A stretch of DNA of 64,000 bases from Candidatus Levyibacteriota bacterium. Its GTDB lineage: Bacteria; Patescibacteriota; Microgenomatia; Levybacterales; UBA12049. The DNA is taken from assembly GCA_038253825.1 (NCBI GenBank), contig JBBSGT010000003.1, positions 463-64,462 on the forward strand, read 5' to 3'. A program made the position numbers and the translations under genes. The notes under the pieces were generated by a model. It did no database searches, was not told the origin of the DNA, and saw only the letters and a program-made list of their open reading frames with translations. This document shows positions 225 through 30,188 of the stretch, one piece after another. Every line of letters begins with the position of its first letter. The first letter of the stretch is position 1.

Positions 225-989
225 ATGCGGGAAATTTATTTATCGGTAATAATCCCATGCTATGATGAAATGGCAAATCTTCAGAAAGGTGTTCTTGATA
301 AAATAGAACATTTTCTTTCAAAGAAGAAATATAGCTATGAAGTCATTATTGCGGATGATGGGTCAAAAGATGGTAGCAGTGAATTCGTCGGGCGATTCTG
401 TAAAGAAAACCCACATTTTTCTCTTATAAAAAATCCTCATTATGGTAAAGCTGGAGCTGTTACCACTGGAATGCTAAAAGCAAAAGGTTCATATAGAGTA
501 TTTACTGATATGGATCAGGCAACTCCAATAGAAGAAATTAATAAATTATTGCCATTTTTAGAAAGTAAAAAATATGATATCGCCATAGGTTCTCGGAATA
601 ACACTCGAAAAGGAGCACCTTGGATTCGCTTATTTATTTCTCGAAGTGCAATTGTTTTAAGAAAAATATTAATAGGACTACCAGAAATTCTTGACACACA
701 GTGTGGCTTTAAGATGTTCACAGGTCAATCAGCACAGGATATATTCCAACAATATAAAAATCTTAATTATGGATTTACTAAAATTTCGGGAACCGCAATT
801 ACTTTTGGATCGGACATAGAACTATTATATTTAGCCAAACAAAAAGAGTATAAAATAAAAGAAGTGCCGGTTCAGTGGCTGCATGTTGAGACGCGACGAG
901 TAAATCCTGTGAAAGATTCTATGCAAGGGGTGATTGATCTTCTCAGAATGAAACGATATATCTTGGCAGGAAAGTATAGAAATTTATAA
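225..989 (+). CDS. GT2 family glycosyltransferase, DPM1/GtrB-like polyprenyl-phosphate sugar synthase
   Basis: N-terminal 'VIIPCYDE...IIADDGSKDGS', then 'DMD' and a Q..RF-like region typical of dolichol-phosphate mannose synthase-like GT2. Its stop overlaps the next start (TAATG). Confidence 0.75.
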   Translation: MREIYLSVIIPCYDEMANLQKGVLDKIEHFLSKKKYSYEVIIADDGSKDGSSEFVGRFCKENPHFSLIKNPHYGKAGAVTTGMLKAKGSYRVFTDMDQATPIEEINKLLPFLESKKYDIAIGSRNNTRKGAPWIRLFISRSAIVLRKILIGLPEILDTQCGFKMFTGQSAQDIFQQYKNLNYGFTKISGTAITFGSDIELLYLAKQKEYKIKEVPVQWLHVETRRVNPVKDSMQGVIDLLRMKRYILAGKYRNL

Positions 990-2203
990 TGGTTTTTAAA
1001 ACATTCTCTGTTAAAGAAAAAGTACTCTTTGCTATTCAAAGCTTAACGTTTCTTGGGCTTTTCCTTTATTCATTCTCACAAATTGATCTGGGATTAACTT
1101 TTTCAAAAGTTACTATTCTGCGCAATATTGTCACGTATTTTCAACATATTGGTTATTTTGAACGTCCGCTTTCATCCCTTATATATATATTTTTAGTTTC
1201 TTTATTGACACTGCTTTATTTTGTTACATTATATTTGGCCAATCATAAAAAAGTACACAAGAAATATGTATGGGCTATCATTATTTTGGGTGCTGTTCTT
1301 TTAACATTTTCCTATAACGCATTCTCCTATGATATTTTTAATTATATTTTTGACGCAAAGATTATAACACATTATCATGCTAATCCTTATGTCCATAAGG
1401 CTTTGGACTATCCAGGTGATCCTATGTTATCGTTTATGCATTGGACACATCGGCCATTTCCGTATGGACCAGTTTGGCTTGGTTTAACTGTTCCAATTTC
1501 TTTTATTGGCATGCAGATATTTTTGGTAACCTTCTTTTTCTTCAAAATGCTGATGACACTAAGCTTTTTAGGGACAGTCTATTTTATTGGGAAAATATTT
1601 CAAAAGTTGTTTCCGCAAAGAGAGATCTTTGGTCTTATCTTTTTTGGATTAAACCCACTTGTTCTAATTGAGAGTTTGGTATCGGCACATATCGATATCG
1701 TTATGATGTTTCTTGCTGTAGCTGCATTCTTTCTACTTATATCTAAAAACTATGGTAAGACATATATCCTGTTACTGTTCTCAATTGGTATAAAATTTCT
1801 GACCGGAATTTTAATTCCTGTCTTTATGTTTATCCATGTGATGCAGCACAGTGAAAAAACAATTAAGTGGGATAATATATTTGGGTTTATTCTCGTTTTA
1901 CTTATGGTGGGTGTAATTGCTGAATCAAGACAAAGCGGTAATTTTCAGCCTTGGTATTTGCTCGCACCTTTGAGCTTTTCTGCTTTTCTTGCCCATAAAC
2001 TGTATGTACTGATCCCAACTATTGTTATATCTTTTATTTCACTTTTTCTCTATCTACCATATCTCTATCTAGGAAATTGGGATCCACCAGTCCCACAACT
2101 TCTTTCTCAAATTATAATAATGAGTTACACTATCGCTTTTTGTTTTACTTCAATTTATTTTTTGTACAAACAAATAGTTTTGGTACGATCTAAAAAAGTC
2201 TAA
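989..2203 (+). CDS. Polytopic integral membrane protein, possible GT-C fold glycosyltransferase
   Basis: 404 aa, about 10 hydrophobic segments, a His/Pro-rich loop (HYHANPYVHKALDYPGDPM...HWTHRPFPYGPVW). Translationally coupled to the upstream DPM1-like GT2. Confidence 0.4.
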   Translation: MVFKTFSVKEKVLFAIQSLTFLGLFLYSFSQIDLGLTFSKVTILRNIVTYFQHIGYFERPLSSLIYIFLVSLLTLLYFVTLYLANHKKVHKKYVWAIIILGAVLLTFSYNAFSYDIFNYIFDAKIITHYHANPYVHKALDYPGDPMLSFMHWTHRPFPYGPVWLGLTVPISFIGMQIFLVTFFFFKMLMTLSFLGTVYFIGKIFQKLFPQREIFGLIFFGLNPLVLIESLVSAHIDIVMMFLAVAAFFLLISKNYGKTYILLLFSIGIKFLTGILIPVFMFIHVMQHSEKTIKWDNIFGFILVLLMVGVIAESRQSGNFQPWYLLAPLSFSAFLAHKLYVLIPTIVISFISLFLYLPYLYLGNWDPPVPQLLSQIIIMSYTIAFCFTSIYFLYKQIVLVRSKKV

Positions 2204-2240
2204 AAGTAATGATAATTTTTATGAAAAAAACGCTTTATTA

Positions 2241-2248
2241 TGTATAAT
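2241..2248 (+). promoter_or_regulatory. TG-extended -10 element (TGTATAAT) upstream of the GC-rich gene 2263..3744
   Basis: tgTATAAT seen directly in the sequence 15 nt upstream of the ATG at 2263, inside a 60-nt intergenic gap. Confidence 0.3.
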
Positions 2249-2262
2249 AAGCTTAACAATAT

Positions 2263-3744
2263 ATGTTTACGAGAGCTCATCTTCGCGTATTAGCTTCTAA
2301 GAACGTCCTGCCTATAACCGCAATTGTCCTAATTGCTGCTGTTATCCGACTATTCGATTTTCCGCATGGGTATGGGTTTGATCCTGACGCTACTCGTGAT
2401 GCTATCATTGCATTTGAGGGAGCGAGTCATCCTTATTTTCCACTTGCCGGCGCCTTCTCATCTACTGGGCCGTTTACCTTTGGGCCATGGTATTACTTGA
2501 GTTTGATAATGGTGGAGTTCTTATTCAAAACTCCTTTCGCGCCATGGTTGCTGATGACAGCCGCGACACTGATAACCGTCGTCGCAATGTACGATATAGG
2601 AAGGCTCGTTGAATCCAGAGCACTGGGCTATGTGCTTGCCGGTTTCGCAGCATTAGCCCCATCTGAGTTTGTCGCAAGCGGATCGCTTTCCAACTTATCT
2701 CCCGTCACACTATTTGCTGCCCTCACGTTGTGGTCGAGTACTCGCATCCTCACTACCATGAGACCAGGTGTGTGGTGGTATTTCGTTCTCGGTGCATCTC
2801 TTGGACTTGGCATTAATGCACACTACCAAATGGCTGGACTTTTGATAGTACCGGTTCTTGTGTGGTTCTTCTCTTCTTCTCGAAAAGTACAGACGGCTCT
2901 GGCGGTTATGTTGGGAGTATTCCTTACATTCATACCGTTACTCATTTTTAACATATCGCATGACTGGCATACGCTTCGGGGAGTTGTCGAAATGTATGCT
3001 TCACGCGATCGCATCTATGTACCAAATAGTTGGAAGATCTATTTGGGTACGTTTTGGCCGTCATTGATACAGTTCATCTTTGGAACGCCGATATTGGTGA
3101 GTGCTGCACTGCTTTTGATTGTGCCTGCGGTGTTGTGCTTTGAAGCTTTTCGTAAATTGTTGCCACGTACTGTGTGGATACTGGCAATTGTTGTTTTTTT
3201 GAACATAATTCAGCTGCGGTATTATTGGGGAGAGCGCTACTTTCCGTATCATTACTATCTCGAACCGTTTCTCCTGTTTCTTGTGGGTTATGTCGTGTAT
3301 CGACTTGCCTCGATCATGCGATATGGCGTTGTCTTTAGTCTCCTGATTGGCCTATCAATCGGGTTCAGTATGGTTGTATTTGATTACAACCGCGATCGCT
3401 CATTCATTCTGGCTCCGGACCAGACCTTGCATGTAGTTGCGGCTTTGCAGGCTAATTATCCAGATAATCCGATAGAAGTGTATAAGTGTGATGGAGACAG
3501 GGGGTGGATAGCTGAGGCGACTACATACGTGATGCAATTTGAGAAAAAACCTAAATCAGGTCGTCCGGTTAAGCTAGGTATGATAGATGCAATCTGTAGT
3601 TATCCTTTAGATCAGCATGGAAGAAAAGTAGTAGGCACGCCGTTTGTTGATCTTTCTCTTGCATCCGAGAATGCGCTTAAGCAAGCTTCTTGGAGTGCGG
3701 TTACGACTGAGGGAGTATTTAAAAAATCAGCAAAATGGTACTGA
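2263..3744 (+). CDS. ArnT/PMT-like (GT-C) polytopic membrane glycosyltransferase, compositionally atypical (GC-richer)
   Basis: 493 aa, many TM segments, acidic motif in the first loop (FDPDATRD), large hydrophilic C-terminal domain. Codon usage is visibly GC-richer than the neighbours. Confidence 0.45.
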   Translation: MFTRAHLRVLASKNVLPITAIVLIAAVIRLFDFPHGYGFDPDATRDAIIAFEGASHPYFPLAGAFSSTGPFTFGPWYYLSLIMVEFLFKTPFAPWLLMTAATLITVVAMYDIGRLVESRALGYVLAGFAALAPSEFVASGSLSNLSPVTLFAALTLWSSTRILTTMRPGVWWYFVLGASLGLGINAHYQMAGLLIVPVLVWFFSSSRKVQTALAVMLGVFLTFIPLLIFNISHDWHTLRGVVEMYASRDRIYVPNSWKIYLGTFWPSLIQFIFGTPILVSAALLLIVPAVLCFEAFRKLLPRTVWILAIVVFLNIIQLRYYWGERYFPYHYYLEPFLLFLVGYVVYRLASIMRYGVVFSLLIGLSIGFSMVVFDYNRDRSFILAPDQTLHVVAALQANYPDNPIEVYKCDGDRGWIAEATTYVMQFEKKPKSGRPVKLGMIDAICSYPLDQHGRKVVGTPFVDLSLASENALKQASWSAVTTEGVFKKSAKWY

Positions 3745-3854
3745 CGATCTGAGCTATCGTAATGCATTTTACATAGCATGAGCTTACATAAAAAGTATCA
3801 GTTACTTTCTTCACTCCATTGCTGAGAAAGCAAACTTTTGAGTATAATAGTATT

Positions 3855-5420
3855 ATGAATAAGTTTACAAAATACTTAGGGTTGTTTATTGTTTTGGCAA
3901 TATTTTATTTTGTTCTGCGGCTTTATCATCTCACGAACCTACCGATTTTTACTGACGAGTCAATCTATATCCGATGGGCACAAATTGGCCTGGGCGATCC
4001 CATGTATCGATTCCTTTCTCTTACTGATGGCAAGCAACCGCTTTTCATTTGGATTATGTATCCATTCCTCAAGATTTTTCACGATCCTCTTGTAGGTGGA
4101 AGAATGGTGTCTGTTTTTACAGGTTTTTTCACGATGCTCGGATTAGGTTTGGTGAGTTTTACTTTATTCAAAAAAAGATCATGGGCGCTTTTCACAATGG
4201 CGCTCTACATTGCATATCCGTTTGCTCAAGTCATGGACCGTATGGCTCTTTATGACAGTATGGTAGCGATGTTCTTTATCTGGTCAGTTTATGCCTCACT
4301 GATGCTCATTAAATCTATGCGTTTAACAGATGCATACAATTTGGGATTTATTTTAGGAGCAGAAAATCTCACTAAGCTTCCTGTTTTTTTCAGTATCCTG
4401 TTACTTCCTATAACCTTGATACTTTTTGATTTTCGTCAAAAACATTGGAGAAGGGAATTACTGAAATGGTTCGGTTTTACTGCTCTAAGCGTTGTTATTT
4501 CACAAGTAATGTATTTCGTTGTTAAGTTGTCACCGCTCCCAAACGTTACTAATGAAAAAAATAATACCTTTTATTACCCAATTTCAGAATGGATTCATCA
4601 TCCTTTTCAATTTTTCATTGGCAATTTCCAAGGTATGACGGCATCTCTTTTGGGATATCTAACAATTCCATATATTTTGTTGGTACTCGTGGCACTTTTT
4701 TATCTCAAGAAAAATTTTAAAGAGAAGGTAATGTTGCTCATATATTTTCTTCTTCCCTATATTGGTTTTGCTTTAATAGGGAAGGAGATTTTTGCTCGGT
4801 ATGTCTTTTTTATGAGTTTGCCCTTGATACTCTTGGCAGGGTGGGGCTTAGGATATCTCATTGATTTGATTATCAAATACTGGCATATAAAAGCTCAAAT
4901 GCGTTTTGTTACAGCGGGATTTATTGCAATTATCTTTTTACTTTATCCTTTATATGTTTGTTTAAGTTTTGCGGCAAACCCAATAGCTGCACCAATTCCA
5001 CAGTCCGATAAGACTCAATATGTTACAGCATGGACAAGTGGTTGGGGATTGAAAGATGCTGTTACCTATCTTCAAAATCAAGCGCAAAGTGGACCAATTT
5101 ATGTAGCAACTGAAGGAACCTTCGGACTTTATCCACAAGGGATAGAATTATATCTATCTAAAAATCCAAATGTTTCAATTAAAGGATATTATTGGGAAAT
5201 AACAAAAGATTTTCCTAAAGATTTAGTAGAAAAAGCAAAGACAATGCCCACATACTTTATCTTCTATCAACCATGCCCTGGAGGCTTTTGTGACCGACCC
5301 GGTGATGCGCCCGCAGGATGGCCTGTGAGAGTTGTGCAGACATATACTCATCCAAACACCCAAACACGAGTTGTCATCTATCAAGTGGAAGAAGGTACGC
5401 TGAATGAAAACATTAAATAG
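3855..5420 (+). CDS. PMT_2/ArnT-like (GT39/GT83-type) membrane glycosyltransferase
   Basis: Conserved DE motif in the first extracytoplasmic loop (LPIFTDESIYIRWAQ), then more than 10 TM segments and a soluble C-terminal domain. The probable ATG is at 3855; the ORF track starts at a TTG at 3819. A TATAAT lies at 3843-3848. Confidence 0.55.
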   Translation: MNKFTKYLGLFIVLAIFYFVLRLYHLTNLPIFTDESIYIRWAQIGLGDPMYRFLSLTDGKQPLFIWIMYPFLKIFHDPLVGGRMVSVFTGFFTMLGLGLVSFTLFKKRSWALFTMALYIAYPFAQVMDRMALYDSMVAMFFIWSVYASLMLIKSMRLTDAYNLGFILGAENLTKLPVFFSILLLPITLILFDFRQKHWRRELLKWFGFTALSVVISQVMYFVVKLSPLPNVTNEKNNTFYYPISEWIHHPFQFFIGNFQGMTASLLGYLTIPYILLVLVALFYLKKNFKEKVMLLIYFLLPYIGFALIGKEIFARYVFFMSLPLILLAGWGLGYLIDLIIKYWHIKAQMRFVTAGFIAIIFLLYPLYVCLSFAANPIAAPIPQSDKTQYVTAWTSGWGLKDAVTYLQNQAQSGPIYVATEGTFGLYPQGIELYLSKNPNVSIKGYYWEITKDFPKDLVEKAKTMPTYFIFYQPCPGGFCDRPGDAPAGWPVRVVQTYTHPNTQTRVVIYQVEEGTLNENIK

Positions 5421-7131
5421 GTTACTTCCCACATTGGTTGTTATTGCATTCTGTTATTGGTCGATAGCACCTCTCTTCCATCCTGGCTTTTTCCCCATCC
5501 ACGACGGTGAACAAGTAGGGAGATTACACGAATTACATCTTGATGTTGTTTCTGGACAATTGCCACCACGGCTTTCGCAGAATTTAGGCTATGGATATGA
5601 TTATCCATTATTTAATTTTTATCCTTCTTTTGTTTATTACATCGCAGAGGTCTATCATTTGCTCGGGTTTTCCTATATCTCTTCAATAAAAATCATGATA
5701 GCAACAGGTTTTCTTCTTGCAGCTATTGGTATGTACTGGCTTTCAAGATATTATTTCGGCAGATTAGCTGGGGTGATTTCTGCGGTTCTTTATACATATG
5801 CGTCATATCATAGTGTGGATGTTTATGTTCGCGGAGCACTGCCGGAATTTTGGTCATTTGTCTTTTTCCCTTTCATCTTTCTCGGTTTTACAAAAATAGC
5901 AGAAAAACCTCGAACATTATGGACGATAGTCACAGGTGTTTTGCTGGCATGTTTTGTTTTAACCCACAATCTTATCGCAATGATGAGTTCACCGTTCATC
6001 TTAGGATTTCTGATTTATCTTGTAATGATAACAAAGGAGAAAAAACAGTTTATTCATTCAGTACTTATTTCTGGCACACTTGGTGTTTTGTTATCTGCTT
6101 ATTTTTGGTTGCCTTCGCTGGCAGAGAAGCATAATACAATGGTAAATTTGTTGACAAAAGAATTAGCAGATTATTCACTGTATTTTGTCTATCCTATACA
6201 ATTTTGGCATTCCCCTTGGGGCTATGGCGGGTCAGTTCCGGGTATGGGGGATGGTATTTCATTCCAAATTGGGAAGGTATACTTTCTTAGCATCATTGCT
6301 GTTTTTGTTTATGCACTATTTTTATTTAAAAAGTATAGAAAGACCGCAGTTCTTCTATTTCTTCTCATCTTCCTTTTTGTCTTCTCATTATTTATGCAAA
6401 TCTCTGCATCAAAGTTTATTTGGGATACCCTGAGGTCTGTAATGGCATATATCCAATTTCCATGGCGATTCCTTGAAATTAGCTTCTTCCTCTCGTCATT
6501 TGCTATAGGAGCACTCTTCATTACCCCTTTTCCTTTTCTCAATAAAAAGTGGGTTCTTTATTTGCAGTATATATTGGGTATCGTGATGATCGCGTTCGTT
6601 TTGTATAAAGGTGTAACAATTTTTAATCCATCAAAATATCTTACCAATGTAACTGATCAAGATTATGTCAGTGAAAGTGTTATGCGATGGGACACAAGCA
6701 ATTTATCTTTTGAATATGTACCAAATGGGATATCGACAAGAAAATCACCTCATGGAAATACTATAGTAAATATCACTAAGGATCAAATAGCCAAAAGTCC
6801 ATTTTCTTCTATTACCGGAAATATGAATATTCAAGTGAAAAAAGATATCCCTCAGCAAAAAACTGCGTTTGTTTCAGTTAAATCAAATGGTATACTACAA
6901 ATCAATGTATACGATTTTCCCGGATGGCATGTCTCTATCGATAGTAAAGAAGTCTCTTATTCTTCAAAGAATGCATTGAAATTGTTGCGGGTTCCTATAG
7001 GCCGAGGAATGCATACAGTCACTGCAGTATTTAAAGACACAACAGTCCGAAGTATAGGAAATGCATTGTCGGGGATAACAATGTTTTGCATTGTTATCTT
7101 TCTTATTGTCCGTTTGCGTAAAGTGAAATGA
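5404..7131 (+). CDS. YfhO-like large GT-C-type membrane protein (member of a paralogous family in this window)
   Basis: 575 aa. N-terminal multi-TM region with a HDGE loop, a C-terminal extracytoplasmic segment 'DFPGWHVSIDSKEVSY...GRGMHTVTAVF' resembling the conserved YfhO-family C-terminus, and a final TM helix. Confidence 0.45.
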   Translation: MKTLNRLLPTLVVIAFCYWSIAPLFHPGFFPIHDGEQVGRLHELHLDVVSGQLPPRLSQNLGYGYDYPLFNFYPSFVYYIAEVYHLLGFSYISSIKIMIATGFLLAAIGMYWLSRYYFGRLAGVISAVLYTYASYHSVDVYVRGALPEFWSFVFFPFIFLGFTKIAEKPRTLWTIVTGVLLACFVLTHNLIAMMSSPFILGFLIYLVMITKEKKQFIHSVLISGTLGVLLSAYFWLPSLAEKHNTMVNLLTKELADYSLYFVYPIQFWHSPWGYGGSVPGMGDGISFQIGKVYFLSIIAVFVYALFLFKKYRKTAVLLFLLIFLFVFSLFMQISASKFIWDTLRSVMAYIQFPWRFLEISFFLSSFAIGALFITPFPFLNKKWVLYLQYILGIVMIAFVLYKGVTIFNPSKYLTNVTDQDYVSESVMRWDTSNLSFEYVPNGISTRKSPHGNTIVNITKDQIAKSPFSSITGNMNIQVKKDIPQQKTAFVSVKSNGILQINVYDFPGWHVSIDSKEVSYSSKNALKLLRVPIGRGMHTVTAVFKDTTVRSIGNALSGITMFCIVIFLIVRLRKVK

Positions 7132-7847
7132 ATAAAAAATTATCTGAATTATCTATTTTCTTTCCGTTTTGGAATGAAGAAAAAAATATAGAAAACGTTG
7201 TGCAAAACGCAAAAGAAGTAGCAGAAAAAGTTGCTTCTCGATGGGAGATCATTATGGTTGATGATGGGTCAGTTGATAAAACTTTGCAGATAGCACAGAA
7301 ATTAACAAAGCAAGATAAGAGACTTCGTGTCGTGACGCATACGCCAAATAGAGGTTACGGAGCTGCATTAGCAGCTGGATTTTCAGTTGCACAATATAAA
7401 TATATCGTTTTTACTGATGGCGACATGCAATTTGATTTTGGTGAAGTTACAAAATTAATTGAAAAGATAGCAAACGCAGATATTGTTATCGGTTATCGAA
7501 AAAAAAGAAGGGATAAGAATCTAGGGAAACGCTTGTTATTAATGTATCTCTTAAAAGTTTGGGATTTAATTCTTTTCAGGTTTTACGTTAGAGACATTGA
7601 TTGTGCTTTTAAGATGTTTCGCAAAGAAGCAATTGAGCAAATTATTCCTTTACGTTCAGAAGGAGCCTTGGTCTCAACTGAGTTATTGGCCAAGGCAAAA
7701 AGAAAAAAGCTGAAAATAATTGAGGTTGGGGTAACACATTACCCAAGAAAATTGGGATATCAAAGCGGTGCAAATTTCCTGGTTATTCTTCGAGCTATTT
7801 TTGAAAGTTTTATATTATGGTGGGATTTAAAAAATGGAAGATTTTGA
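7128..7847 (+). CDS. GT2 family glycosyltransferase, DPM1-like polyprenyl-phosphate sugar synthase
   Basis: 'LSIFFPFWNEEKNI...IIMVDDGSVDKT...FTDGDMQ' GT2 DxD architecture, 239 aa. ATGA overlap with the upstream gene. Confidence 0.75.
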   Translation: MNKKLSELSIFFPFWNEEKNIENVVQNAKEVAEKVASRWEIIMVDDGSVDKTLQIAQKLTKQDKRLRVVTHTPNRGYGAALAAGFSVAQYKYIVFTDGDMQFDFGEVTKLIEKIANADIVIGYRKKRRDKNLGKRLLLMYLLKVWDLILFRFYVRDIDCAFKMFRKEAIEQIIPLRSEGALVSTELLAKAKRKKLKIIEVGVTHYPRKLGYQSGANFLVILRAIFESFILWWDLKNGRF

Positions 7848-9294
7848 TTTACAAGTAGTTGCTAAAAAATCAGTAACAGGAATATTTGCCCTCGTTTCCC
7901 GTTCATTCCTCGTGCAAATTTTGGCAGTTGTCAGTAACTTTGTTCTGACAATATATCTCGAACCTGCAATGTTCGGTATCTTTTTTGTCGTCAGTGCGAT
8001 CAACGTCTTTTTGGCATATTTTCAGGATATTGGCTTGGCTGCTCTTATTGTACAAAAGAAAGAAGAACCTTCAGTTGAGGAATTACGGACAACCTTTACG
8101 ATTCAGCAAATTTTAGTTTTTAGTATTGTCATCATTGGTTTTCTCCTCACTCCATTTATCACGCATCAGTTTCATTTAACAACTGAAGGTTTATATGTCT
8201 ATTACGCATATTTAATTTCTTTTATATTTTCCTCACTTAAAACTATCCCCACAGTTTTACTTGAAAGAAGACTTGATTTCCAAAAGCTTGTTGTACCCCA
8301 GATTGCCGAAGGACTTGTTTACAGTATTGCTCTTATTACTTTTGCACTCTTAGGTTTTGGTGTGAATACATTTACTATCGCAATTTTATTAAGAAGTATT
8401 GTGGGATTGCCATTAATTTATTATATACAGCCATGGAGTATTGGGTTTGCGTTTAAAAAATCACTCATCAAGCAACTTATTTCTCACGGATCTCCTTATC
8501 AAGGAAATAGTATCCTTGCACTTTTAAAAGATGATTTGGTAGATCTATATGTAGCATCTGTATTGCCACTTACACAGGTTGGATATATTGGGTTTGGACA
8601 AAAGTGGGGTTCTCTTCCTTTACGGCTTGTTATGGATAATGTTATTAAAGTCACATTCCCTTCCTACAGCCGCTTACAGCACAATAAAGAAGCATTAAAG
8701 ATAGTAGTTGAAAAGTCTCTCTTTTTAATCTCGTTTTTCATTTTCCCTATCGTTGTAGGATTTATTGTCTTTTCTCCTGATCTTATCAAATTTATCCCGC
8801 GATACGGGAAATGGGAAAATGCATTAGTTTCCTTAATGTATTTTTCTTTGGATACACTCTTTGCTTCGATAAGTGTGCCTTTAACAAACTTACTGAATGC
8901 TATCGGAAAAGTAAAAATTACGCTGAAATATATGGTATTTTGGACAATCTTAACGTGGGTCTTGACGATTCTGTTTATACGCTGGTTTGGTTATAATGGT
9001 GTCGCATTAGCGTCCTTTATTGTCTCTGCAAGTGTTCTTCTTATTCTTATTCCGGTTAAAAAAGAATTGCAGTTTTCGTTTGTCGGTCCCATATGGAAAC
9101 AATTTTTAGCAGCACTCATTATGGGAATTCTAGTCTACGCAAGCCGTGGTATGATTCATTCTCTCTTAGAATTGGGAATGATGATGATTATAGCAGGAAT
9201 CTTCTATCTAGCAATTCTTTTTGCAATATCAAAAAATGAGCTTATGAAGATATATGCATTTATTTCAGATATAATTAAAAAGGATAAAAAATGA
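7834..9294 (+). CDS. Wzx-like polysaccharide/oligosaccharide flippase (MOP superfamily)
   Basis: 486 aa with about 12-14 TM helices and an N-terminal pattern typical of 'polysaccharide biosynthesis protein' exporters. Confidence 0.6.
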   Translation: MEDFDLQVVAKKSVTGIFALVSRSFLVQILAVVSNFVLTIYLEPAMFGIFFVVSAINVFLAYFQDIGLAALIVQKKEEPSVEELRTTFTIQQILVFSIVIIGFLLTPFITHQFHLTTEGLYVYYAYLISFIFSSLKTIPTVLLERRLDFQKLVVPQIAEGLVYSIALITFALLGFGVNTFTIAILLRSIVGLPLIYYIQPWSIGFAFKKSLIKQLISHGSPYQGNSILALLKDDLVDLYVASVLPLTQVGYIGFGQKWGSLPLRLVMDNVIKVTFPSYSRLQHNKEALKIVVEKSLFLISFFIFPIVVGFIVFSPDLIKFIPRYGKWENALVSLMYFSLDTLFASISVPLTNLLNAIGKVKITLKYMVFWTILTWVLTILFIRWFGYNGVALASFIVSASVLLILIPVKKELQFSFVGPIWKQFLAALIMGILVYASRGMIHSLLELGMMMIIAGIFYLAILFAISKNELMKIYAFISDIIKKDKK

Positions 9295-10199
9295 GGAATA
9301 TAGCAGTTGTAACAGTCAACTATAATACGGCTAAAGACACGCAGGCTTTTTTAGCATCTCTAGCAAAAATTGCCAGAGAAAATTTTACCATCCAAACTAT
9401 TGTTGTTGATAATGGTTCTATAGAGAAACTTCAATTGTCTCCTAAAGAACAATTAAATACTATACTTATCCATAATGCAGATAACAGTGGTTTCTCTGGG
9501 GGTTATAATATTGGCATCAAAACAGCCTTAAAAAATGGAGCTGATGCTATAATGATTGTTAATAATGACACGCTTCTAGATCCAGATCTTCTTATTAATT
9601 TAGAAAAAGTATTATATTCAGATGAGATCATTGGGTTAACTGTGCCTAAAATTTATTTTGCAAAAGGACACGAATTTCATAAGGACCGGTATACAAAAGA
9701 ACAATTAGGAAAGGTACTCTGGTATGCAGGAGGAAGTGTAGATTGGAAGAATATTCAAAGTATTCATAGAGGAGTCGATGAAGTCGATGAGGGGCAATAC
9801 AATAACACCGAAAAGGTAGATTTTGCGAGTGGTTGTTGTATGATGATCAAAAAAGAAGTCTTTGAGAAAATTGGAATGTTTGACGAGCGATATTTTCTCT
9901 ATTATGAAGATGCAGATCTGTGCGAACGCATGAAACGTGCAGGATATGCTCTTTACTATGCACCGGATGCTTTTCTTTATCATATAAATGCTTCTTCCTC
10001 GGGAGGTGCGGGAAATGTTATTCAGGATTATTATATTACTCGTAATCAAATGCTTTTTGGTATGTCATATGCGCCACTGCGTGCAAAGATTGCTTTATTA
10101 CGTCAAAGTTTTCGGTTGTTAAAAAACGGAAGACCGAATCAAAAAAAAGCAATTAAAGATTATTTTCTGAGGAGATTCGGCAAAGGAGAAAATTTATGA
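9291..10199 (+). CDS. GT2 family glycosyltransferase (rhamnosyltransferase-like)
   Basis: 'IAVVTVNYNTAKDT...VVDNGS', 'NNDT' and 'YYEDADLCERMKRAGY' motifs. Confidence 0.75.
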   Translation: MRNIAVVTVNYNTAKDTQAFLASLAKIARENFTIQTIVVDNGSIEKLQLSPKEQLNTILIHNADNSGFSGGYNIGIKTALKNGADAIMIVNNDTLLDPDLLINLEKVLYSDEIIGLTVPKIYFAKGHEFHKDRYTKEQLGKVLWYAGGSVDWKNIQSIHRGVDEVDEGQYNNTEKVDFASGCCMMIKKEVFEKIGMFDERYFLYYEDADLCERMKRAGYALYYAPDAFLYHINASSSGGAGNVIQDYYITRNQMLFGMSYAPLRAKIALLRQSFRLLKNGRPNQKKAIKDYFLRRFGKGENL

Positions 10200-10960
10200 T
10201 AAAAATTTCGGCAATTATTCTTACAAAAAATGCTGAAGAATTAATCGCAGATTGCATTGATTCTATTTCATTTTGTGATGAAATAATAGTTATTGATGAT
10301 AACTCGTCAGATAGAACTGTTGAGTTGGCGAAGCTGTTAGGAGTAACTGTTTATCAATATGAATCAGAGAGTTTTGCTAAGAAAAGAAATCTTGGGTTAA
10401 AAAAAGCAAAAGGAAAATGGTTACTCTATGTTGATGTGGATGAACGAGTGTCTCCTGATTTAGCAGATGCAATAAAAACGATACTTGAAAGAAAAAGTGA
10501 TATTTATAATGCATACAGAATACAAAGACAAAACTTTTATCTGGGTGATCATGAATGGCCAAAAATAGAAAAATTAGAACGCCTTTTTAAGAAAGCAAAA
10601 CTTGAAGAATGGTATGGAGATCTTCATGAAAGTGCACAAGTAAATGGAGATATTGGGGACATTGATATTGGAGTTATCAAACATTATACCCATCAGGATT
10701 TGACGAGTATGGTAAATAAAACTATCCATTGGTCAAAAATTGAAGCAGAATTGCGAATAAAAGCAAACCATCCGAAGATGTCTTGGTGGAGATTTTATCG
10801 AGTTATGTTTACTGCTTTTTATGATTCTTATATAAAACAAAAGGGTTATAAATCAGGGACGGCAGGCTTGGTTGAAAGTATATTTCAAGCATTTAGCATG
10901 TTTATTACCTATGCAAGGCTTTGGGAAATGCAACAAGAAAAATCATCAATTAAGAAATAA
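10196..10960 (+). CDS. GT2 family glycosyltransferase (LPS-core-type, WaaE/KdtX-like)
   Basis: 'ISAIILTKNAEELIADCIDSISFCDEIIVIDDNSSDRT...YVDVDERV' architecture. Confidence 0.7.
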   Translation: MIKISAIILTKNAEELIADCIDSISFCDEIIVIDDNSSDRTVELAKLLGVTVYQYESESFAKKRNLGLKKAKGKWLLYVDVDERVSPDLADAIKTILERKSDIYNAYRIQRQNFYLGDHEWPKIEKLERLFKKAKLEEWYGDLHESAQVNGDIGDIDIGVIKHYTHQDLTSMVNKTIHWSKIEAELRIKANHPKMSWWRFYRVMFTAFYDSYIKQKGYKSGTAGLVESIFQAFSMFITYARLWEMQQEKSSIKK

Positions 10961-10983
10961 TTACCTTAAATTAATTCTTAATA

Positions 10984-11247
10984 TTATTTCTTTTCTGATA
11001 CACCTTTAATAAAGACATTTTTCCACCCTTTCATCTCGGTATATGTCAATCGTTTTTTGGCAAAGTAAAATAAATAGGCAATTTCGAGTATCCCGAAGGT
11101 GTTGATGACTAAGATAAGAATTAGAATAATGATAAACCAATTCCTCTGATGCAATTGGGCTGCTCTCCAGAGCGCAATTCCTTTCCAAATGATTTCCCAA
11201 ATGAAGAGAACATAAACCAGGAAATTAGGCAAAAAGCTTGTGTCCAT
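10984..11247 (-). CDS. Small 2-TM membrane protein (hypothetical, tentatively PLDc_N-like)
   Basis: Only minus-strand ORF inside the 21-kb + array. 88 aa from the internal Met (MDTSFLPNF...), two hydrophobic helices with conserved Trp residues, Lys-rich tail. Confidence 0.35.
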   Translation of the reverse strand: MDTSFLPNFLVYVLFIWEIIWKGIALWRAAQLHQRNWFIIILILILVINTFGILEIAYLFYFAKKRLTYTEMKGWKNVFIKGVSEKK

Positions 11248-11312
11248 ATGCCTAATCCTACCATGTGATAGGGACGTATGCAAGAGGTGCAAAACTTGCT
11301 ACAATCAGAATA

Positions 11313-12386
11313 ATGAAGATAGGTATTTATGACCCATATTTGGACGATCTCGGTGGTGGAGAAAAATATATGATGACAGTAGCTTCTTGCCTCATGGATC
11401 GGCATGAAGTTAGTATATTTTGGGATAATAAAGACGATATAATTGCCATTGAAAAGCGCTTTTCTCTTCCATTAATGGCTACTAAGTTGGAACCGAACAT
11501 ATTCAATAATAAATTCAACTTTACTTCTCGAATGAGCATAACGAAGAATTATGATGTTCTCATTATCCTCAGTGACGGTAGTATCCCTTTTGTATTCTCT
11601 CGTAAGTTATTTCTTCATATTCAGCAGCCCTTACCCATAAAAAGATCTTCTTCTTTTAAAGATAAAATAAAAATTAAAATAATTTCTAAAATTTTTTATA
11701 ATTCAAAATTTACAAAACAATATAATGCGCCGATTTTCCCAAATGTAAGATCTACAGTGATTTATCCACCTGTTTTCTTCCGAAAAACGAACACAAAAAA
11801 AGAAAATTATATAATTCATGTGGGAAGATTCCGTGTGAAAGATGTTGGTACCAATGATTTTAAAAAACAATCAGTAATGGTAGAAACTTTTAAAAAGATG
11901 GTTGATCAAGGTCTTAAAAACTGGAAGTTCATCCTTGCTGCTAGTGTGAAGAAAGAAGATGAAGCTATGTTTGCTTTACTACAAAAAAATGCAAAAGAGT
12001 ATCCAATTGAGTTCCATATAAACAAAAGTAATGATGATCTGTTCAATTTATATAATAAGTCAAAAATTTATTGGCATGCATCAGGATATGGAGAGGATTT
12101 AGAAACCCATCCTGAATTAGCAGAACATTTTGGTATCTCTACTGTTGAAGCAATGGGGGCCGGCGTTGTTCCTGTGGTGATTAATGCAGGAGGACAGAAA
12201 GAAATTGTTACTGATGGTAAAAATGGGCTCTTATGGAATACAACTGAAGAATTAGCAAAACAGACAATGCAATTGGTTAATGATCAAAAATTATTGCGTA
12301 AACTTTCACAAGAAGCAGAGATACGATCAAAAGATTTCAGTTTAGAAAAATTTTCAGAGAACATATATCAGTTAATACAGTCATGA
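11313..12386 (+). CDS. GT4 family glycosyltransferase
   Basis: Start MKIGIYDPYLDDLGGGEKY, C-terminal 'STVEAMGAGVVPVVINAGGQKEIV' Glycos_transf_1 motif. ATG at 11313; the ORF track starts earlier at a non-ATG codon. Confidence 0.75.
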   Translation: MKIGIYDPYLDDLGGGEKYMMTVASCLMDRHEVSIFWDNKDDIIAIEKRFSLPLMATKLEPNIFNNKFNFTSRMSITKNYDVLIILSDGSIPFVFSRKLFLHIQQPLPIKRSSSFKDKIKIKIISKIFYNSKFTKQYNAPIFPNVRSTVIYPPVFFRKTNTKKENYIIHVGRFRVKDVGTNDFKKQSVMVETFKKMVDQGLKNWKFILAASVKKEDEAMFALLQKNAKEYPIEFHINKSNDDLFNLYNKSKIYWHASGYGEDLETHPELAEHFGISTVEAMGAGVVPVVINAGGQKEIVTDGKNGLLWNTTEELAKQTMQLVNDQKLLRKLSQEAEIRSKDFSLEKFSENIYQLIQS

Positions 12387-13336
12387 ATATAAGTATTGTT
12401 ATTCCAAATTATAATGGGGAAGATCTTTTGCAAAAAAACTTGCCGACAATCATAGAAGCGGTAAAGGACTACAAAGAGGGAAACGTTGAAATTATTATTG
12501 CCGATGATCCATCTACGGATAATTCCCAACATGTCATTGCTGAATTTATAAAAAGTATTTCTCACAAACATATCATCGCCAAAACCATCAGTAATAGAAA
12601 TAAGAAGGAGGCAGGATTCTCAAAAAATGTGAATCGAGGGGTAAGCTTGGCTACCGGAGATGTTCTTATTCTCCTCAATACAGATGTTGCACCACATAAG
12701 GATTTTTTGCAACCACTGTTGAAACATTTTAAAGATGAAAATACATTTGCAGTAGGTTGTATGGATGAAAGCCATGAAGGTAATGAAATAATATTGCGCG
12801 GAAGGGGGACTGCTCGCTGGCAACGGGGTTTTGTTATTCATGCAGCAGGGAGTCTGGATAAAGCCAATACCTTTTGGGTTAGCGGGGGGAGTGGAGCTTT
12901 CCGGAAAAGAATTTGGGATACATTAGGTGGTCTTGATGAATTGTATAATCCATTTTATTGGGAGGATATTGATCTCTCATACCGTGCGTTAAAATCCGGT
13001 TATAAAGTTATTTTTGAAAAAGAAAGTATTGTTGCACATGAGCATAGTAAAGGTTCTATCAAAACACAATTTGCAGAGAAAGGAATTAAGACAATTGCCT
13101 ATCGTAATCAATTTATTTTTACATGGAAAAATATTACTGACAAAAAGTTGATACAATCACATTATAAATGGCTGCCTTATCATTTTCTGAAAGCGTTACT
13201 GAATAGAGATGATGCTTTTTTCAACGGCTACTTTTCTGCACTTGCGGTAAGATCTAAGATTAATAAATCGAAATTAATTGCTCGCAAATTATTTGTAAAA
13301 CATGATGAAGATGTATTACAAGCCTTTCACGAATGA
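12383..13336 (+). CDS. GT2 family glycosyltransferase
   Basis: 'ISIVIPNYNGEDLL...IIIADDPSTDNS', 'NTDV' and 'WEDIDLSYR' motifs. Confidence 0.75.
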   Translation: MNISIVIPNYNGEDLLQKNLPTIIEAVKDYKEGNVEIIIADDPSTDNSQHVIAEFIKSISHKHIIAKTISNRNKKEAGFSKNVNRGVSLATGDVLILLNTDVAPHKDFLQPLLKHFKDENTFAVGCMDESHEGNEIILRGRGTARWQRGFVIHAAGSLDKANTFWVSGGSGAFRKRIWDTLGGLDELYNPFYWEDIDLSYRALKSGYKVIFEKESIVAHEHSKGSIKTQFAEKGIKTIAYRNQFIFTWKNITDKKLIQSHYKWLPYHFLKALLNRDDAFFNGYFSALAVRSKINKSKLIARKLFVKHDEDVLQAFHE

Positions 13337-14049
13337 AGAAGCTATCTGTTATTATTCCGGTTTATAATGAAGAAAAAACTGTTGCACATATCATCAAAAA
13401 AATTATTGCCGTTAAATTACCAATTCCAAAAACAGAGTATATAATTATTGATGACGGCTCCACTGATAAATCTGCGCAAATCATCAAAAGAATTAAGTTA
13501 CCTCATAACTGGAAATTTATCCAACATAAAGATAATAGCGGCAAAGGCGCAGCTGTTATTACAGGAATCAAGAAGGCAACTGGAGACTATATTATTATTC
13601 AAGATGCAGATTTAGAATATGATCCAAAAGATATACTAAAGATTTTACAACCGGTTTTGGATAAAAAGTCATGGGTAGTTTATGGCACGAGACTAAAGCG
13701 AAACCCTAACTTTGCAAGAGATGAAAGAACGATGCAGTTTTTTTTGCATTATATGGGGAACAAATTTTTAAGTCTGATAACAAGCATGTTATATTTTCAC
13801 TGGGTAACAGATATGGAATGTTGTTATAAACTTTTTCCAAAAAATGCATTGGATGGTACAGTCTTGCACGCACGCGGATTCGAATTTGAGCCTGAAATCA
13901 CCGCTAAGTTACTTAAAAAAAACTTTAAGATGGTAGAAGTTTCAATTTCCACCAATCCACGAGGTTATGGTGAAGGTAAAAAATTAAATACTGTTAAAGA
14001 CGGCACAAAAGCGCTTTGGACATTGTTAAAATATCGTTTTATTGATTAA
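13333..14049 (+). CDS. GT2 family glycosyltransferase, DPM1-like polyprenyl-phosphate sugar synthase
   Basis: 'LSVIIPVYNEEKTV...IIIDDGSTDKS...IQDADLEYDP', 238 aa. Confidence 0.75.
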   Translation: MKKLSVIIPVYNEEKTVAHIIKKIIAVKLPIPKTEYIIIDDGSTDKSAQIIKRIKLPHNWKFIQHKDNSGKGAAVITGIKKATGDYIIIQDADLEYDPKDILKILQPVLDKKSWVVYGTRLKRNPNFARDERTMQFFLHYMGNKFLSLITSMLYFHWVTDMECCYKLFPKNALDGTVLHARGFEFEPEITAKLLKKNFKMVEVSISTNPRGYGEGKKLNTVKDGTKALWTLLKYRFID

Positions 14050-14064
14050 ATAAAAAATGGGAGT

Positions 14065-15675
14065 ATGATTAAGAAATTATTTTTACCACTTTTTATTATT
14101 ATTCTTTTTACTGGAACTTTTTTGCGATTTTATCAGTTAGGTTCTATTCCCGCTGCAATGGACTGGGATGAGGTTTCTTGGGGTTATAATGCCTATTCTA
14201 TTCTTCAGACAGGAAAAGATGAATATGGAGCTACATACCCATTATCTTTTCGTGCATTTGGTGATTATAAGCAACCAGTGTATGTCTATGCATCGACGAT
14301 TCCGATTGCGTTTTTTGGGCTGACACCGTTTGCGACACGTTTTCCATCTGCATTTTTTGGCTCACTGAGCATAATTTTTGTGTTTTTATTGACCTATGAG
14401 TTATTTCGAAAGCAACGATATGCACAAACCACGGCATTGCTTACGATGCTATTCTATGCCATATCTCCATGGGCGATCCACTTTAGTAGAGTCGCTTATG
14501 AAGCCAACGTAGGACTATTTTTTATTTTACTTGGTAGTTGGTTATTTATTCGAGGCTTTCATAAAAAGAGACATTGGTATCTTTTTGCGGGAGTTGCCGC
14601 TATGTCTCTGAGTGCATATACCTATCATAGTGATAAATTATTCGCGCCATTACTATTTGTGGCCCTTCTTTTGTATGGATGGAAATATTTTGTGGAAAAG
14701 AAAGTTCTTACTGTAGGCCTTATCATTATTTTCGGATTATGCAATATTTTTTGGGTAGTTGATGGCAGGACTACCGAGCGGGGGAGAAGCGTCTTATTTA
14801 CCGCAGATCAGGCGAAATTACTACATACTTCTCTTCAGGAAATGCAATATGACCACGTACATGGTGATAAATTGGGCGAATTGCTTCATAACAGACGCAT
14901 TGTCTACGTAAACCAATATATAAAAAATTATTTACAGCATTTTAATCCTGAGTGGCTTTTTCTTGCCGGCGATAATCCTCGGCATCATACACCAGGCATG
15001 GGAATATTATACCTCATTGATTTACCGTTTATACTGCTCGGCATATTCTACTTGTTGAAATATCAATTCTCTACATCTTCAATTCTTTTCTTCTGGCTTC
15101 TCTTCGCTCCCGCGGCTTCAGCGCTCGCTGTTGATGCACCTAACGCATCACGGAGTCTTATCTTTCTCCCCACGTGGCAGATCTTTGCGGCCTTTGGATG
15201 GTGGTTTGCTATTTCTTCTGTAGAGAAAAGAAAGCTCAGATTACTTTTTGCAATGCCGATTCTTCTTTTTGTCTTTAATTTTATTTATTTCATTCATCAG
15301 TATTTTGTTCATACCAATATGGAAGTTCAAAAAGACTGGCAGTATGGTTACAAAGAAGCGGTCGACTATGCTTCTCAATATCAACATATAAATAAAAATG
15401 TATTTTTCGGTAAAAATTTTGAACAACCTTATATTTTTTATCTTTTTTACACAAAATATGACCCGGCAAAATATATTGCATCAGGAGGGTCTTCTCGTCT
15501 GTCACAAAGATGTTTTTCTATAGCAAACGCTTATTTCGGAGATTGTACTGATAAAATGAAGTTTGGAGATATATACATGGCAGCAGGAACAGATTCATCG
15601 GAGAAAGGAAAAATCCTAAAACAAATAACGTATACTTACGGAGATCCGGCAATCACTATTTATCAACATCAATGA
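14065..15675 (+). CDS. PMT_2/ArnT-like (GT-C) membrane glycosyltransferase
   Basis: DE motif in the first loop (AAMDWDEVSWGYNAY), more than 10 TM segments, C-terminal soluble domain. Immediately downstream of a DPM1-like GT2. Confidence 0.55.
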   Translation: MIKKLFLPLFIIILFTGTFLRFYQLGSIPAAMDWDEVSWGYNAYSILQTGKDEYGATYPLSFRAFGDYKQPVYVYASTIPIAFFGLTPFATRFPSAFFGSLSIIFVFLLTYELFRKQRYAQTTALLTMLFYAISPWAIHFSRVAYEANVGLFFILLGSWLFIRGFHKKRHWYLFAGVAAMSLSAYTYHSDKLFAPLLFVALLLYGWKYFVEKKVLTVGLIIIFGLCNIFWVVDGRTTERGRSVLFTADQAKLLHTSLQEMQYDHVHGDKLGELLHNRRIVYVNQYIKNYLQHFNPEWLFLAGDNPRHHTPGMGILYLIDLPFILLGIFYLLKYQFSTSSILFFWLLFAPAASALAVDAPNASRSLIFLPTWQIFAAFGWWFAISSVEKRKLRLLFAMPILLFVFNFIYFIHQYFVHTNMEVQKDWQYGYKEAVDYASQYQHINKNVFFGKNFEQPYIFYLFYTKYDPAKYIASGGSSRLSQRCFSIANAYFGDCTDKMKFGDIYMAAGTDSSEKGKILKQITYTYGDPAITIYQHQ

Positions 15676-29690: not shown

Positions 29691-30188
29691 ATGAGTAGAC
29701 AAATATTTTTTGATAAATTTTTTCATGGATGGCTCTATATTACGAGTGTATTTCCCAATGTCTATAGAGGATGGTTATTGAAATTGCGATCAGAAAAAGT
29801 AGGGAATGGATTACGTATTGATAAAGATTGCCTTTTTTATCATACGAGTAAATTAAAAATTGGTAATAACGTCTGGATAGGTCGACGTGCGTTTATTTCT
29901 GCAAGAGGAGGTCTAAGCATCGGTGATGATTCGTTGATTGCTTTTGATTCAGTCATATTAACAGAACATCATATTTATAAAAAGGGTGTCTTAATAAGAA
30001 CAACCGGTTTTTCTATAAAGCCTACTGTTATCGGAAATAATGTATTAATAGGTGCAAAAGCTGTGGTGATGCCGGGTGTAAAAATTGGAGACAACGTCGT
30101 AATTGGAATAAATAGTGTTGTAACAAAAAATATCCCATCAGGAAGTATTGCAGCAGGGGTTCCTGCGAAGATCATTAAAAAATGGTAA
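29691..30188 (+). CDS. Hexapeptide-repeat (LbH) sugar O-acetyltransferase
   Basis: Repeated [LIV]GxxxxI hexapeptides (IGNNVWIG...IGDDSLIA...IGNNVLIGAKAVVMPGVKIGDNVVIG). The ATG at 29691 is preferred over the TTG at 29685 used by the ORF track. Confidence 0.7.
   Translation: MSRQIFFDKFFHGWLYITSVFPNVYRGWLLKLRSEKVGNGLRIDKDCLFYHTSKLKIGNNVWIGRRAFISARGGLSIGDDSLIAFDSVILTEHHIYKKGVLIRTTGFSIKPTVIGNNVLIGAKAVVMPGVKIGDNVVIGINSVVTKNIPSGSIAAGVPAKIIKKW

Follow-up and report, generated by a model that had tools for sequence, protein, structure and literature searches.

Small DPM1/GtrB-like glycosyltransferases beside GT-C enzymes in a glycan locus of a Levybacteria bacterium: a probable route from lipid-linked sugars to the cell envelope

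What does it mean when small glycosyltransferases (GTs) resembling DPM1 and GtrB recur along a locus, most of them next to a large polytopic membrane protein? This question is raised by the stretch of DNA analysed here (64 kb, called the window throughout), in which genes are named by the first position of their open reading frame (ORF). The source organism is a bacterium of Levybacteria in the candidate phyla radiation (CPR; Patescibacteria). The closest protein homologues of the window are labelled Candidatus Levyibacteriota or Patescibacteria, and proteins identical to its own are also present in the NCBI metagenome-assembled genome (MAG) GCA_050997215.1 and on a Logan contig. The genes lie almost all on the plus strand and nearly all of them are glycan-related. 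In our study, the window has been read as a cell-envelope glycan super-locus in which sugars are loaded onto a lipid by a synthase, flipped and then transferred by GT-C enzymes; this is the best-supported reading and we hold it to be likely. The features on which it is built are collected in Table 1.

The five small family 2 glycosyltransferases (GT2s; 225, 7128, 13333, 19847 and 39850) had been singled out by an earlier sequence-only reading as one DPM1/GtrB-like subfamily, and clustering within the window bears this out. They are mutually best in-window matches (E 1e-11 to 1e-28) and stand apart from the other eight GT2s of the window, which form two other clusters. The best solved-structure relatives of all five were found to be the DPMS of Pyrococcus furiosus (5mlz), the GtrB of Synechocystis (5ekp) and ArnC, with alignments of at least 200 residues for 7128, 13333, 19847 and 39850, which is most of the catalytic domain, and of about 155 residues for 225. 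In comparison, the control GT2 28656 gave 19 PDB matches, none of them DPMS, GtrB or ArnC and all within roughly the N-terminal 100-130 residues. Kinship with the polyprenyl-phosphate synthase subfamily, on which the sequence-only reading had staked its proposal beforehand, is therefore supported. In NCBIfam the five align to ArnC, PgfS, AglJ and PpgS across the catalytic domain, and four control GT2s do so N-terminally only. None of the five reached an NCBIfam equivalog cut-off, all scoring far below (39850 against PgfS, for example, 144 bits with a cut-off of 500), and hence they are family-level relatives and not orthologs of the named enzymes.

Polyprenyl-phosphate sugar synthases are expected to carry an intact DxD motif and a conserved Asp in a D-x-x-(C/S)-G-F-(K/R)-type motif. 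The downstream Asp of the latter is invariant in all five small GT2s. DDGSxD, DxD and a D-x-x-C-G-F-K-type motif are common to four of them, and 19847 is degenerate in these motifs; the DxD position reads DMD in 225, DGD in 7128, DAD in 13333 and 39850, and D-A-G in 19847 and its ortholog. This 67%-identical ortholog (relative L002, 5725-6519, minus strand) and 19847 have VDG(M/I)xD followed by D-A-G, as against DDGSxD and DxD in the other four, and such a conserved loss of the second metal-binding Asp may indicate a different chemistry or a non-catalytic protein. The two C-terminal transmembrane (TM) helices of GtrB and ArnC were found in 39850 only (residues 232-250 and 266-284). No anchor is present in the other four (225, the lowest-scoring of the five, is without any TM helix), and in this they recall the separate catalytic Ppm1 of Mycobacterium smegmatis and Corynebacterium glutamicum, or human DPM1. 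On these family relationships, the five small GT2s probably load sugars onto a lipid carrier as polyprenyl-phosphate sugar synthases.

Nine of the large membrane proteins can be assigned with confidence to GT-C (989, 2263, 3819, 5404, 14065, 32460, 35769, 38188 and 47167). All six that had been listed from sequence alone are among them, and that list was too short, having left out 47167, 32460 and 35769, and possibly 30182 and 44092. In the core run, the best NCBIfam matches of 989 are MptA (1.8e-12; 46.9 bits, cut-off 439.4) and MptB (3.7e-6; 25.6 bits, cut-off 40), and a Pfam scan with a local copy gave no match for it. It has more than 2151 homologues, 53-88% identical among the matches listed, many of which carry GT87. 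Its AlphaFold2 (AF2) model, with a predicted local distance difference test (pLDDT) score of 86.8, has PIG-M, ALG12, PIG-U, PimE and ALG6 among its best Foldseek matches, and D33, D115 and D122 are invariant in the family. The next gene, 2263, has a GC content of 0.42 in comparison to about 0.33-0.37 nearby, and in relatives this place is occupied by a second MptA_B-like gene or by nothing, which has the look of a variable slot or of gene acquisition. The orthologs of 5404 pass PTPS_related (E <=1e-5), for which 5404 itself falls just short (Table 1). YfhO, which had also been suggested for the classification, gave no listed match in the Pfam scans for any membrane protein of the window.

Further downstream, the predicted fold of 38188 gave GT-C enzymes as all of its top 28 Foldseek matches in PDB, with ArnT (5f15) as the best (1.9e-6), followed by STT3, ALG12/ALG9, AglB, PglB and Emb. 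The Pfam scan of 38188 itself gave no match, PMT_2 is carried by about 15% of its homologues among the matches listed, and D48 in the first loop is invariant in its family. In the 32460 family (1150 homologues) a GGDD motif follows TM helix 1 at residues 35-38, in which D37 does not vary and the other three residues (G35, G36 and D38) each show 90% conservation or more; a comparison of this family's profile with PDB sequences gave nothing useful. The ORF of 32460 encodes 769 residues, and the public gene call gives a protein of 652 residues starting near 32811. The deposited annotation appears to be N-terminally truncated, because the alignment of the homologues begins at about residue 6 of the 769-residue ORF, ahead of the GGDD motif at residues 35-38. 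The 32460 paralogue 35769 also matched the 5404 family profile at 92%. No DPM1-like GT2 adjoins 47167, which overlaps by 4 nt with a PfkB-family (ribokinase-like) sugar kinase gene (48657-49598), and this hints at a different, possibly pentose-based donor pathway for it.

The links among these families were obtained from profiles built from orthologs in the fetched loci and compared locally with each other, since matching profiles to single sequences lacked the sensitivity needed. The 3819 family matched 14065 at 99.4%, and 5404 matched 14065 at 97.7%, 3819 at 96% and 32460 at 97.8% (319 columns). Likewise, 14065 matched 38188 at 95% and 32460 at 94.7%, and 32460 matched 38188 at 93.9%. The comparison of 3819 with 38188 gave just 8%, so the link between these two families is indirect. 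A Wzx-family control did not exceed 1.6% against any GT-C profile. By predicted topology, DE/DxD-type motifs follow TM helix 1 in 3819, 14065, 47167 and 5404, and an invariant acidic residue is found after it in the 38188, 989 and 32460 families. For 30182, which had no match in the Pfam scans, and for the C-terminal half of 44092, the resemblance is suggestive of GT-C. The 44092 product has 1016 residues and about 18 TM helices, with a second polytopic half at about 560-1016; over residues 601-708 it shares 27% identity with the N-terminal part of 30182, and this half gave a weak match (75%) to the profile of the PMT_2-type 14065 family. From its sequence, 44092 may be a polymerase or ligase fused to a GT-C. 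As a group, the predicted role of the GT-C enzymes is probably to attach lipid-linked sugars outside the cell.

The arrangement of the genes also bears on the question. A GT-C gene adjoins four of the five DPM1-like GT2s and one of the eight other GT2s of the window (Fisher one-sided p = 0.032). The sequence-only reading had each small GT2 beside a GT-C, which is true for 225, 7128, 13333 and 39850 and not for 19847, whose neighbour 18610 is a MOP/Wzx flippase gene. It had also described several of the modules as translationally coupled, and for most of them the junctions are indeed tight: 225 and 989 overlap by 1 nt (TAATG), 3819/5404 by 17 nt, 5404/7128 by 4 nt, 7128/7834 by 14 nt and 18610/19847 by 17 nt, and 15 nt separate 13333 from 14065. 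The exception is 38188/39850, which is not coupled because the two genes lie 108 nt apart. Two flippases of the MOP superfamily are thus each joined to a small GT2 by overlap. An assignment of 18610 as a Wzy polymerase or GT-C was rejected, as its homologues are MOP flippases. No GtrA family match was found in the scans of window ORFs, which covered the non-overlapped ORFs of at least 100 residues and the small ORF 37712-38002; the four-helix protein 23761 was tried as a GtrA-like flippase and nothing in support was obtained, with no Pfam match even at E <=5.

Conservation was analysed in one genome per species, where 354 relatives of 989 were found and the best 80 loci were taken. A 225-like GT2 (54-79% identical) lies immediately upstream of the 989 homologue on the same strand in 78 of the 80 loci, with the 4-nt form of the overlap in 27 of these 78. 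Counted from the 989 homologue, the GT-C run comprises 3-7 genes. In the 33 loci long enough to show where the run stops it has 3-6 genes, and a second DPM1-like GT2 closes it in every one (29 of them 7128-like, 4 of them 225-like). Where the closing GT2 is 7128-like, the Wzx gene comes after it. The core order of GT2, MptA/B-like GT-C, GT-C run, GT2 and Wzx is therefore conserved. An independent 105-kb contig matches the order and sizes of window positions 225-10960, with a GT2 of 254 residues, MptA_B (408), MptA_B/GT87 (484), PMT_2 (512) and PTPS_related (575), continuing with GT2 (239), Wzx (485), GT2 (301) and GT2 (254). A Levybacteria MAG retains the equivalent of 3819-21750 with the 13333/14065 and 18610/19847 pairs, and the 13333/14065 ortholog pairing is retained in the relatives L002, L003 and L012. 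The comparison of synteny that had been suggested thus upholds the 225/989 pair and the closing GT2, and it does not uphold the adjacency of 38188 and 39850. Many species-representative MAGs with this Levybacteria-type locus (L009, L010, L017 and others; L063; L004) are titled 'uncultured Gammaproteobacteria', 'Pacearchaeota archaeon' or 'Acidiferrales', and the record titles are for this reason unreliable for taxonomy.

The mechanism proposed from these findings would proceed in three steps. The five DPM1/GtrB-family GT2s would move one sugar from a nucleotide sugar to polyprenyl phosphate at the cytoplasmic face. The lipid-linked monosaccharide would then be flipped. The candidates for this step are the two flippases of the MOP/Wzx type, each of them in translational coupling with one such GT2. 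Outside the membrane, at least nine GT-C-fold enzymes would use the lipid-linked donors to elongate and decorate a wall glycan, a lipoglycan or a glycoprotein. For the core pair 225/989, polyprenyl-phosphate mannose and a mannan-type chain are, by analogy to Ppm1 and MptA/MptB in Corynebacterineae, the most likely products. Mannose and a lipomannan-like chain are plausible for the core since 989 is MptA/B-like, a ManC-like gene is present in the window and PGM/PMM is encoded upstream in a relative. The sequence-only reading had spoken of extensive decoration of the surface; the MptA/MptB-like character of 225/989, which is the best-conserved pair, points to extracytoplasmic chain building as in lipomannan, beyond side-chain decoration alone. 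Subfamily and fold membership, gene order and the conservation of that order are established; we infer which sugars and which acceptor are involved, which protein is the flippase and which synthase supplies which GT-C.

Among known systems, the closest resemblance is to Ppm1 with MptA/MptB, which build lipomannan and lipoarabinomannan in Corynebacterineae (background in PMC3485146, PMC2157549 and PMC2440535). The likeness consists in a small anchor-less DPM1-family GT2 domain (here in four of the five GT2s), a GT2 adjoining an MptA_B-family GT-C with more GT-Cs after it, GDP-mannose supply genes nearby and, as proposed here, stepwise extracytoplasmic addition from a lipid-monophosphate donor. 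On the other hand, 989 with its 404 residues is shorter than the NCBIfam models of MptA and MptB (470 and 553 positions) and its scores are below their cut-offs; neither a partner of the Ppm2/Lnt type nor a PimA/PimB signature nor an anchor pathway based on phosphatidylinositol was identified; and the host here is a CPR bacterium, in which the GT-C run is bracketed by two synthases with Wzx after it. In the Gtr systems (GtrA/GtrB/GtrC; CsbB/YfhO, GacI/GacL, PgfS/PgfM) the same general logic of synthase, flipping and GT-C is found, and 39850, which lies 108 nt downstream of a GT-C, shows the GtrB/ArnC/PgfS architecture in full. The differences are that the scanned ORFs gave no GtrA match, that a TM hairpin is missing from the other four synthases, that none of the GT-Cs matches YfhO and that the adjacency of 38188 and 39850 is not conserved.

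In the MOP three-component systems (PPPRS/MATE/GT136 of Citrobacter youngae and AglD/AglR/AglS of Haloferax) a lipid-monophosphate sugar synthase is paired with a MOP protein in place of GtrA, together with a GT-C, and the overlapping pairs 7128/7834 and 18610/19847 are comparable. A MATE flippase is implicated in the pentofuranose system (PMC11127046) and AglR in the flipping of Dol-P-Man in Haloferax (PMC3871713). Here, however, the predicted flippases are of the Wzx/PST type rather than MATE and could equally serve an undecaprenyl diphosphate (Und-PP) pathway, and the synthases are GT2 enzymes, unlike the phosphoribosyl pyrophosphate (PRPP)-dependent one of C. youngae. Because GtrA is missing and the GtrB anchor occurs only in 39850, the logic of the locus is closer to mycobacterial Ppm1/MptA-B and to the MOP-flippase three-component systems than to Gtr proper. 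Of the Gtr three-component and Ppm1/PMT logic invoked by the sequence-only reading, the synthase and GT-C part accordingly stands and a strict Gtr system does not.

Several observations weigh against the order of synthase, flipping and GT-C transfer. The evidence for every gene of the locus comes from sequences and models. 989 scores below the MptA and MptB cut-offs of NCBIfam, being a member of the broader MptA_B_family and no equivalog; its Foldseek matches are non-significant (E 0.24-0.9), and when PDB sequences were searched with the 989 and 38188 family profiles, neither search gave a solved structure. In the PDB search 225 matches the synthases weakly past residue 160. 19847 and its ortholog are without the second Asp of DxD, and no GT-C adjoins 19847. 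Four of the five synthases lack a membrane anchor, and no Ppm2-like partner was identified. The pairing of 38188 and 39850 is supported by adjacency in this genome only, 38188 homologues being solitary or in other contexts in four other genomes, and it may be fortuitous. Moreover, a complete classical pathway (priming phosphoglycosyltransferase, GT4 and GT2 enzymes, Wzx and Wzy_C) resides in the same window, and both MOP flippases could belong to that Und-PP pathway instead.

This co-resident pathway leads to a rival explanation in which the small GT2s would act in the cytoplasm as ordinary Leloir transferases and extend the Und-PP-linked repeat units of a Wzx/Wzy pathway, their adjacency to GT-C genes would be mere clustering of envelope genes, and the GT-Cs would use donors from elsewhere or act as polymerases or ligases. 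Apart from the full Wzx/Wzy-type set (Bac_transf phosphoglycosyltransferase, many GT2 and GT4 genes, two Wzx and one Wzy_C), the modest synthase-family scores of 225 and 19847 and the degenerate DxD of 19847 speak in favour of this explanation. We nevertheless consider it quite improbable, as the five GT2s form a subfamily of their own with polyprenyl-phosphate sugar synthases exclusively as best solved relatives, unlike the control GT2; a GT2 is kept beside the GT-C in 78 of the 80 loci with a second one closing the run in 33 of 33; and 39850 has the full GtrB/ArnC architecture including both C-terminal TM helices. That the large polytopic proteins are transporters or permeases and not glycosyltransferases, an outcome that the sequence-only reading had itself named as refuting it, is highly improbable. 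PMT_2 or MptA_B matches in Pfam on five of the proteins, a GT-C fold for 38188 with no transporter in its top 28 matches, and GT-C profiles that score 90-99% against each other (3819/38188 excepted) and remain clear of Wzx all speak for glycosyltransferases, as had been proposed from sequence alone. It is true that 18610 and 7834 are MOP flippases and that the membrane proteins 34729, 21729 and 23761 are without family assignment; for the nine confident GT-Cs, a transporter identity was rejected on the fold matches of 38188 and the profile comparisons.

An unlikely alternative is an archaeal-type assembly on a monophosphate carrier. Here a subset of the small GT2s, in particular 13333 (AglJ-like) and the two that are coupled to flippases (7128 and 19847), would prime an oligosaccharide on polyprenyl phosphate, which soluble GT2 and GT4 enzymes would extend and a MOP flippase would flip, and a GT-C would act as an oligosaccharyltransferase by transferring the whole glycan to protein or glycan. 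AglJ, the best NCBIfam match of 13333, puts the first sugar on dolichyl phosphate (Dol-P), after which AglG, AglI and AglE extend it (PMC3871713). Further, genes for soluble GT2 and GT4 enzymes flank both 7128 and 19847, each of which shows translational coupling to a Wzx-type flippase, and 14065 and 47167 match the archaeal Agl23 family. The oligosaccharyltransferases STT3, AglB and PglB are among the fold matches of 38188, but the best of these is ArnT, a monosaccharide transferase, and no GT-C of the window matches the STT3 Pfam family or has a recognised WWDYG-type motif. The many consecutive GT-Cs of the conserved core fit stepwise single-sugar addition better than a single transfer of the finished glycan, and a conventional priming phosphoglycosyltransferase for a diphosphate-linked pathway is present. 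The order of synthase, flipping and GT-C transfer is retained as the preferred reading of the window.

Table 1. Coordinates of the principal features in the window with their assignments and main evidence. The ORFs referred to by the sequence-only reading are those at 225, 989, 2263, 3819/3855, 5404, 7128, 13333, 14065, 19847, 38188/38194 and 39850, and all of them were confirmed.
Coordinates	Strand	Assignment	Evidence and remarks
225..989	+	Small GT2, DPM1/Ppm1-like, putative polyprenyl-phosphate hexose synthase	Pfam GT2 1.2e-23; PDB: DPMS 5mlz 2.2e-12, then GtrB, ArnC
989..2203	+	GT-C, MptA/MptB/GT87 type	404 residues, ~11 TM helices; precomputed PF26314 MptA_B_family
2263..3744	+	GT-C (PMT_2), variable slot	PMT_2 5.7e-8, 33.6 bits (cut-off 26.1)
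3819..5420	+	GT-C (PMT_2/PMT)	PMT_2 3.2e-7; weak ArnT match; start 3855 in public gene call
5404..7131	+	GT-C-like (PTPS_related), C-terminal anchor helix	PF10131 6.4e-6, 25.3 bits, just below cut-off 26.4
7128..7847	+	Small DPM1-like GT2	PDB: ArnC 5.6e-16 (residues 6-222), DPMS 2.7e-15 (7-225)
7834..9294	+	MOP-superfamily (Wzx/PST) flippase, coupled to GT2 7128	Polysacc_synt_3 2.3e-40
13333..14049	+	Small GT2 without membrane anchor, AglJ/DPMS-like	NCBIfam AglJ 1.6e-30 (best); DPMS 1.2e-15 (residues 3-234)
14065..15675	+	GT-C (PMT_2/PMT, Agl23-like)	PMT_2 6.6e-7, PMT 6.6e-5, Agl23 3.3e-12
18610..19863	+	Second MOP/Wzx-type flippase	Homologues with PF01943/PF13440 (Polysacc_synt/Polysacc_synt_3), named 'oligosaccharide flippase'; ~12 TM helices
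19847..20647	+	DPM1-like GT2, degenerate metal-binding motif	DPMS 3.6e-15 (residues 11-213)
30182..31828	+	Polytopic protein, possible GT-C	Profile match 75% to 14065 family over 104 columns; ~9 TM helices
32460..34769	+	Probable GT-C, large extracytoplasmic domain and C-terminal anchor	GT-C_AftD matched by 3 of 31 family members
35769..37793	+	Probable GT-C, 32460 paralogue	hhalign to 32460 99%, E 4.5e-18, full length
38188..39741	+	GT-C, ArnT/STT3-like predicted fold	AF2 pLDDT 91.3; start 38194 in public gene call
39850..40803	+	GtrB/ArnC-type GT2	NCBIfam PgfS 5.5e-42, ArnC 2.3e-40, both end to end; PDB: ArnC 5.3e-37, GtrB 1.3e-26
44092..47142	+	Wzy_C (polymerase/ligase-like) N-terminal half, possibly GT-C-like C-terminal half	Wzy_C 4.1e-8, residues 239-446
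47167..48660	+	GT-C (PMT_2/PMT)	PMT_2 2.5e-15 (strongest in window), PMT 9e-12, Agl23 2.6e-12
59924..61009	+	ManC-like sugar-1-phosphate nucleotidyltransferase	NTP_transferase 1.9e-24 plus ManC_GMP_beta-helix
60931..61680	+	Priming phosphoglycosyltransferase of co-resident Wzx/Wzy-type pathway	Bac_transf 6.1e-60

The overall gene content of the window (GC content 0.30-0.42) is in keeping with a glycan locus. There are 13 GT2 and about 10 GT4 genes, two nucleoside diphosphate (NDP)-sugar epimerase/dehydratases, one DegT aminotransferase, two hexapeptide acyltransferases, one methyltransferase and the PfkB kinase, together with the ManC-like nucleotidyltransferase 59924, which on its domains likely supplies GDP-mannose, the Bac_transf enzyme 60931, the two Wzx-type flippases (7834 and 18610), the one Wzy_C protein (44092) and many polytopic membrane proteins. 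The 177-residue ORF 40840-41373 corresponds to the N-terminal Glyco_transf_4 half of a GT4 only, the gene having been either split or lost in part by decay; a complete GT4 (41427-42563) lies directly downstream. On the minus strand, the first 50 kb has just a gene pair at 21729-24363 and a small DUF5652 membrane ORF (10984-11292), which lies in the one sizeable gap before 20 kb and has a counterpart at the equivalent position in another Levybacteria MAG (L002, 15942-16211). The pair encodes a 200-residue protein with 4 TM helices and a 663-residue protein in which 3 TM helices at the N-terminus are combined with a large external domain and a C-terminal anchor; the family scans gave no match for either. 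Divergent genes at 53031-53669 (minus) and 55144-57015 (plus) have a common N-terminal domain of 112 residues (57% identical), the 55144 product having a type I dockerin in addition, and a ferric-reductase-like flavocytochrome gene (53749-55047, minus) lies between them. Just before window position 1 (L084, 2377-4774), upstream of 225 and on the opposite strand, are genes for a YdjC-family deacetylase and a 482-residue DUF2079 membrane protein, both of which are found in a relative too. As DUF2079 is another family of the GT-C clan, the glycan locus may extend past the start of the window.

The mechanism as such is familiar from Actinobacteria, Firmicutes, enterobacteria and Archaea and would be no surprise to a specialist. 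Each element has precedent, and the novelty lies in the lineage, in how densely GT-C genes are packed and in a bracketed arrangement that is conserved within a CPR clade. In the literature no study of this locus in Levybacteria or Patescibacteria was found, and the only related item is from the annotation of a Saccharibacteria genome, where GT87 and Dol-P-Man synthases are remarked upon (PMC6031116).

CPR genomes are of about 1 Mb and their cell envelope is essentially uncharacterised, and yet most of this 64-kb stretch is given to glycan genes, with five lipid-sugar synthases and 9-11 GT-C enzymes by our assignments. A wider proposal, which we put forward tentatively and regard as unlikely, is that Levybacteria and related CPR bacteria would build their main surface polymer largely outside the membrane, lipomannan-like and stepwise, by tandem GT-Cs from polyprenyl-phosphate sugars, with the synthase-coupled Wzx-type MOP proteins as lipid-monosaccharide flippases replacing GtrA. 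If true, a minimal-genome lineage would be using an envelope strategy of actinobacterial style, one that would also be a candidate determinant of host attachment. The locus offers concrete gene pairs on which such proposals can be tested, 225/989 for example. Of the 80 species-level genomes analysed, out of 354 with a relative of 989, at least 78 retain the core module, which would make extracytoplasmic glycosylation a core trait of the lineage.

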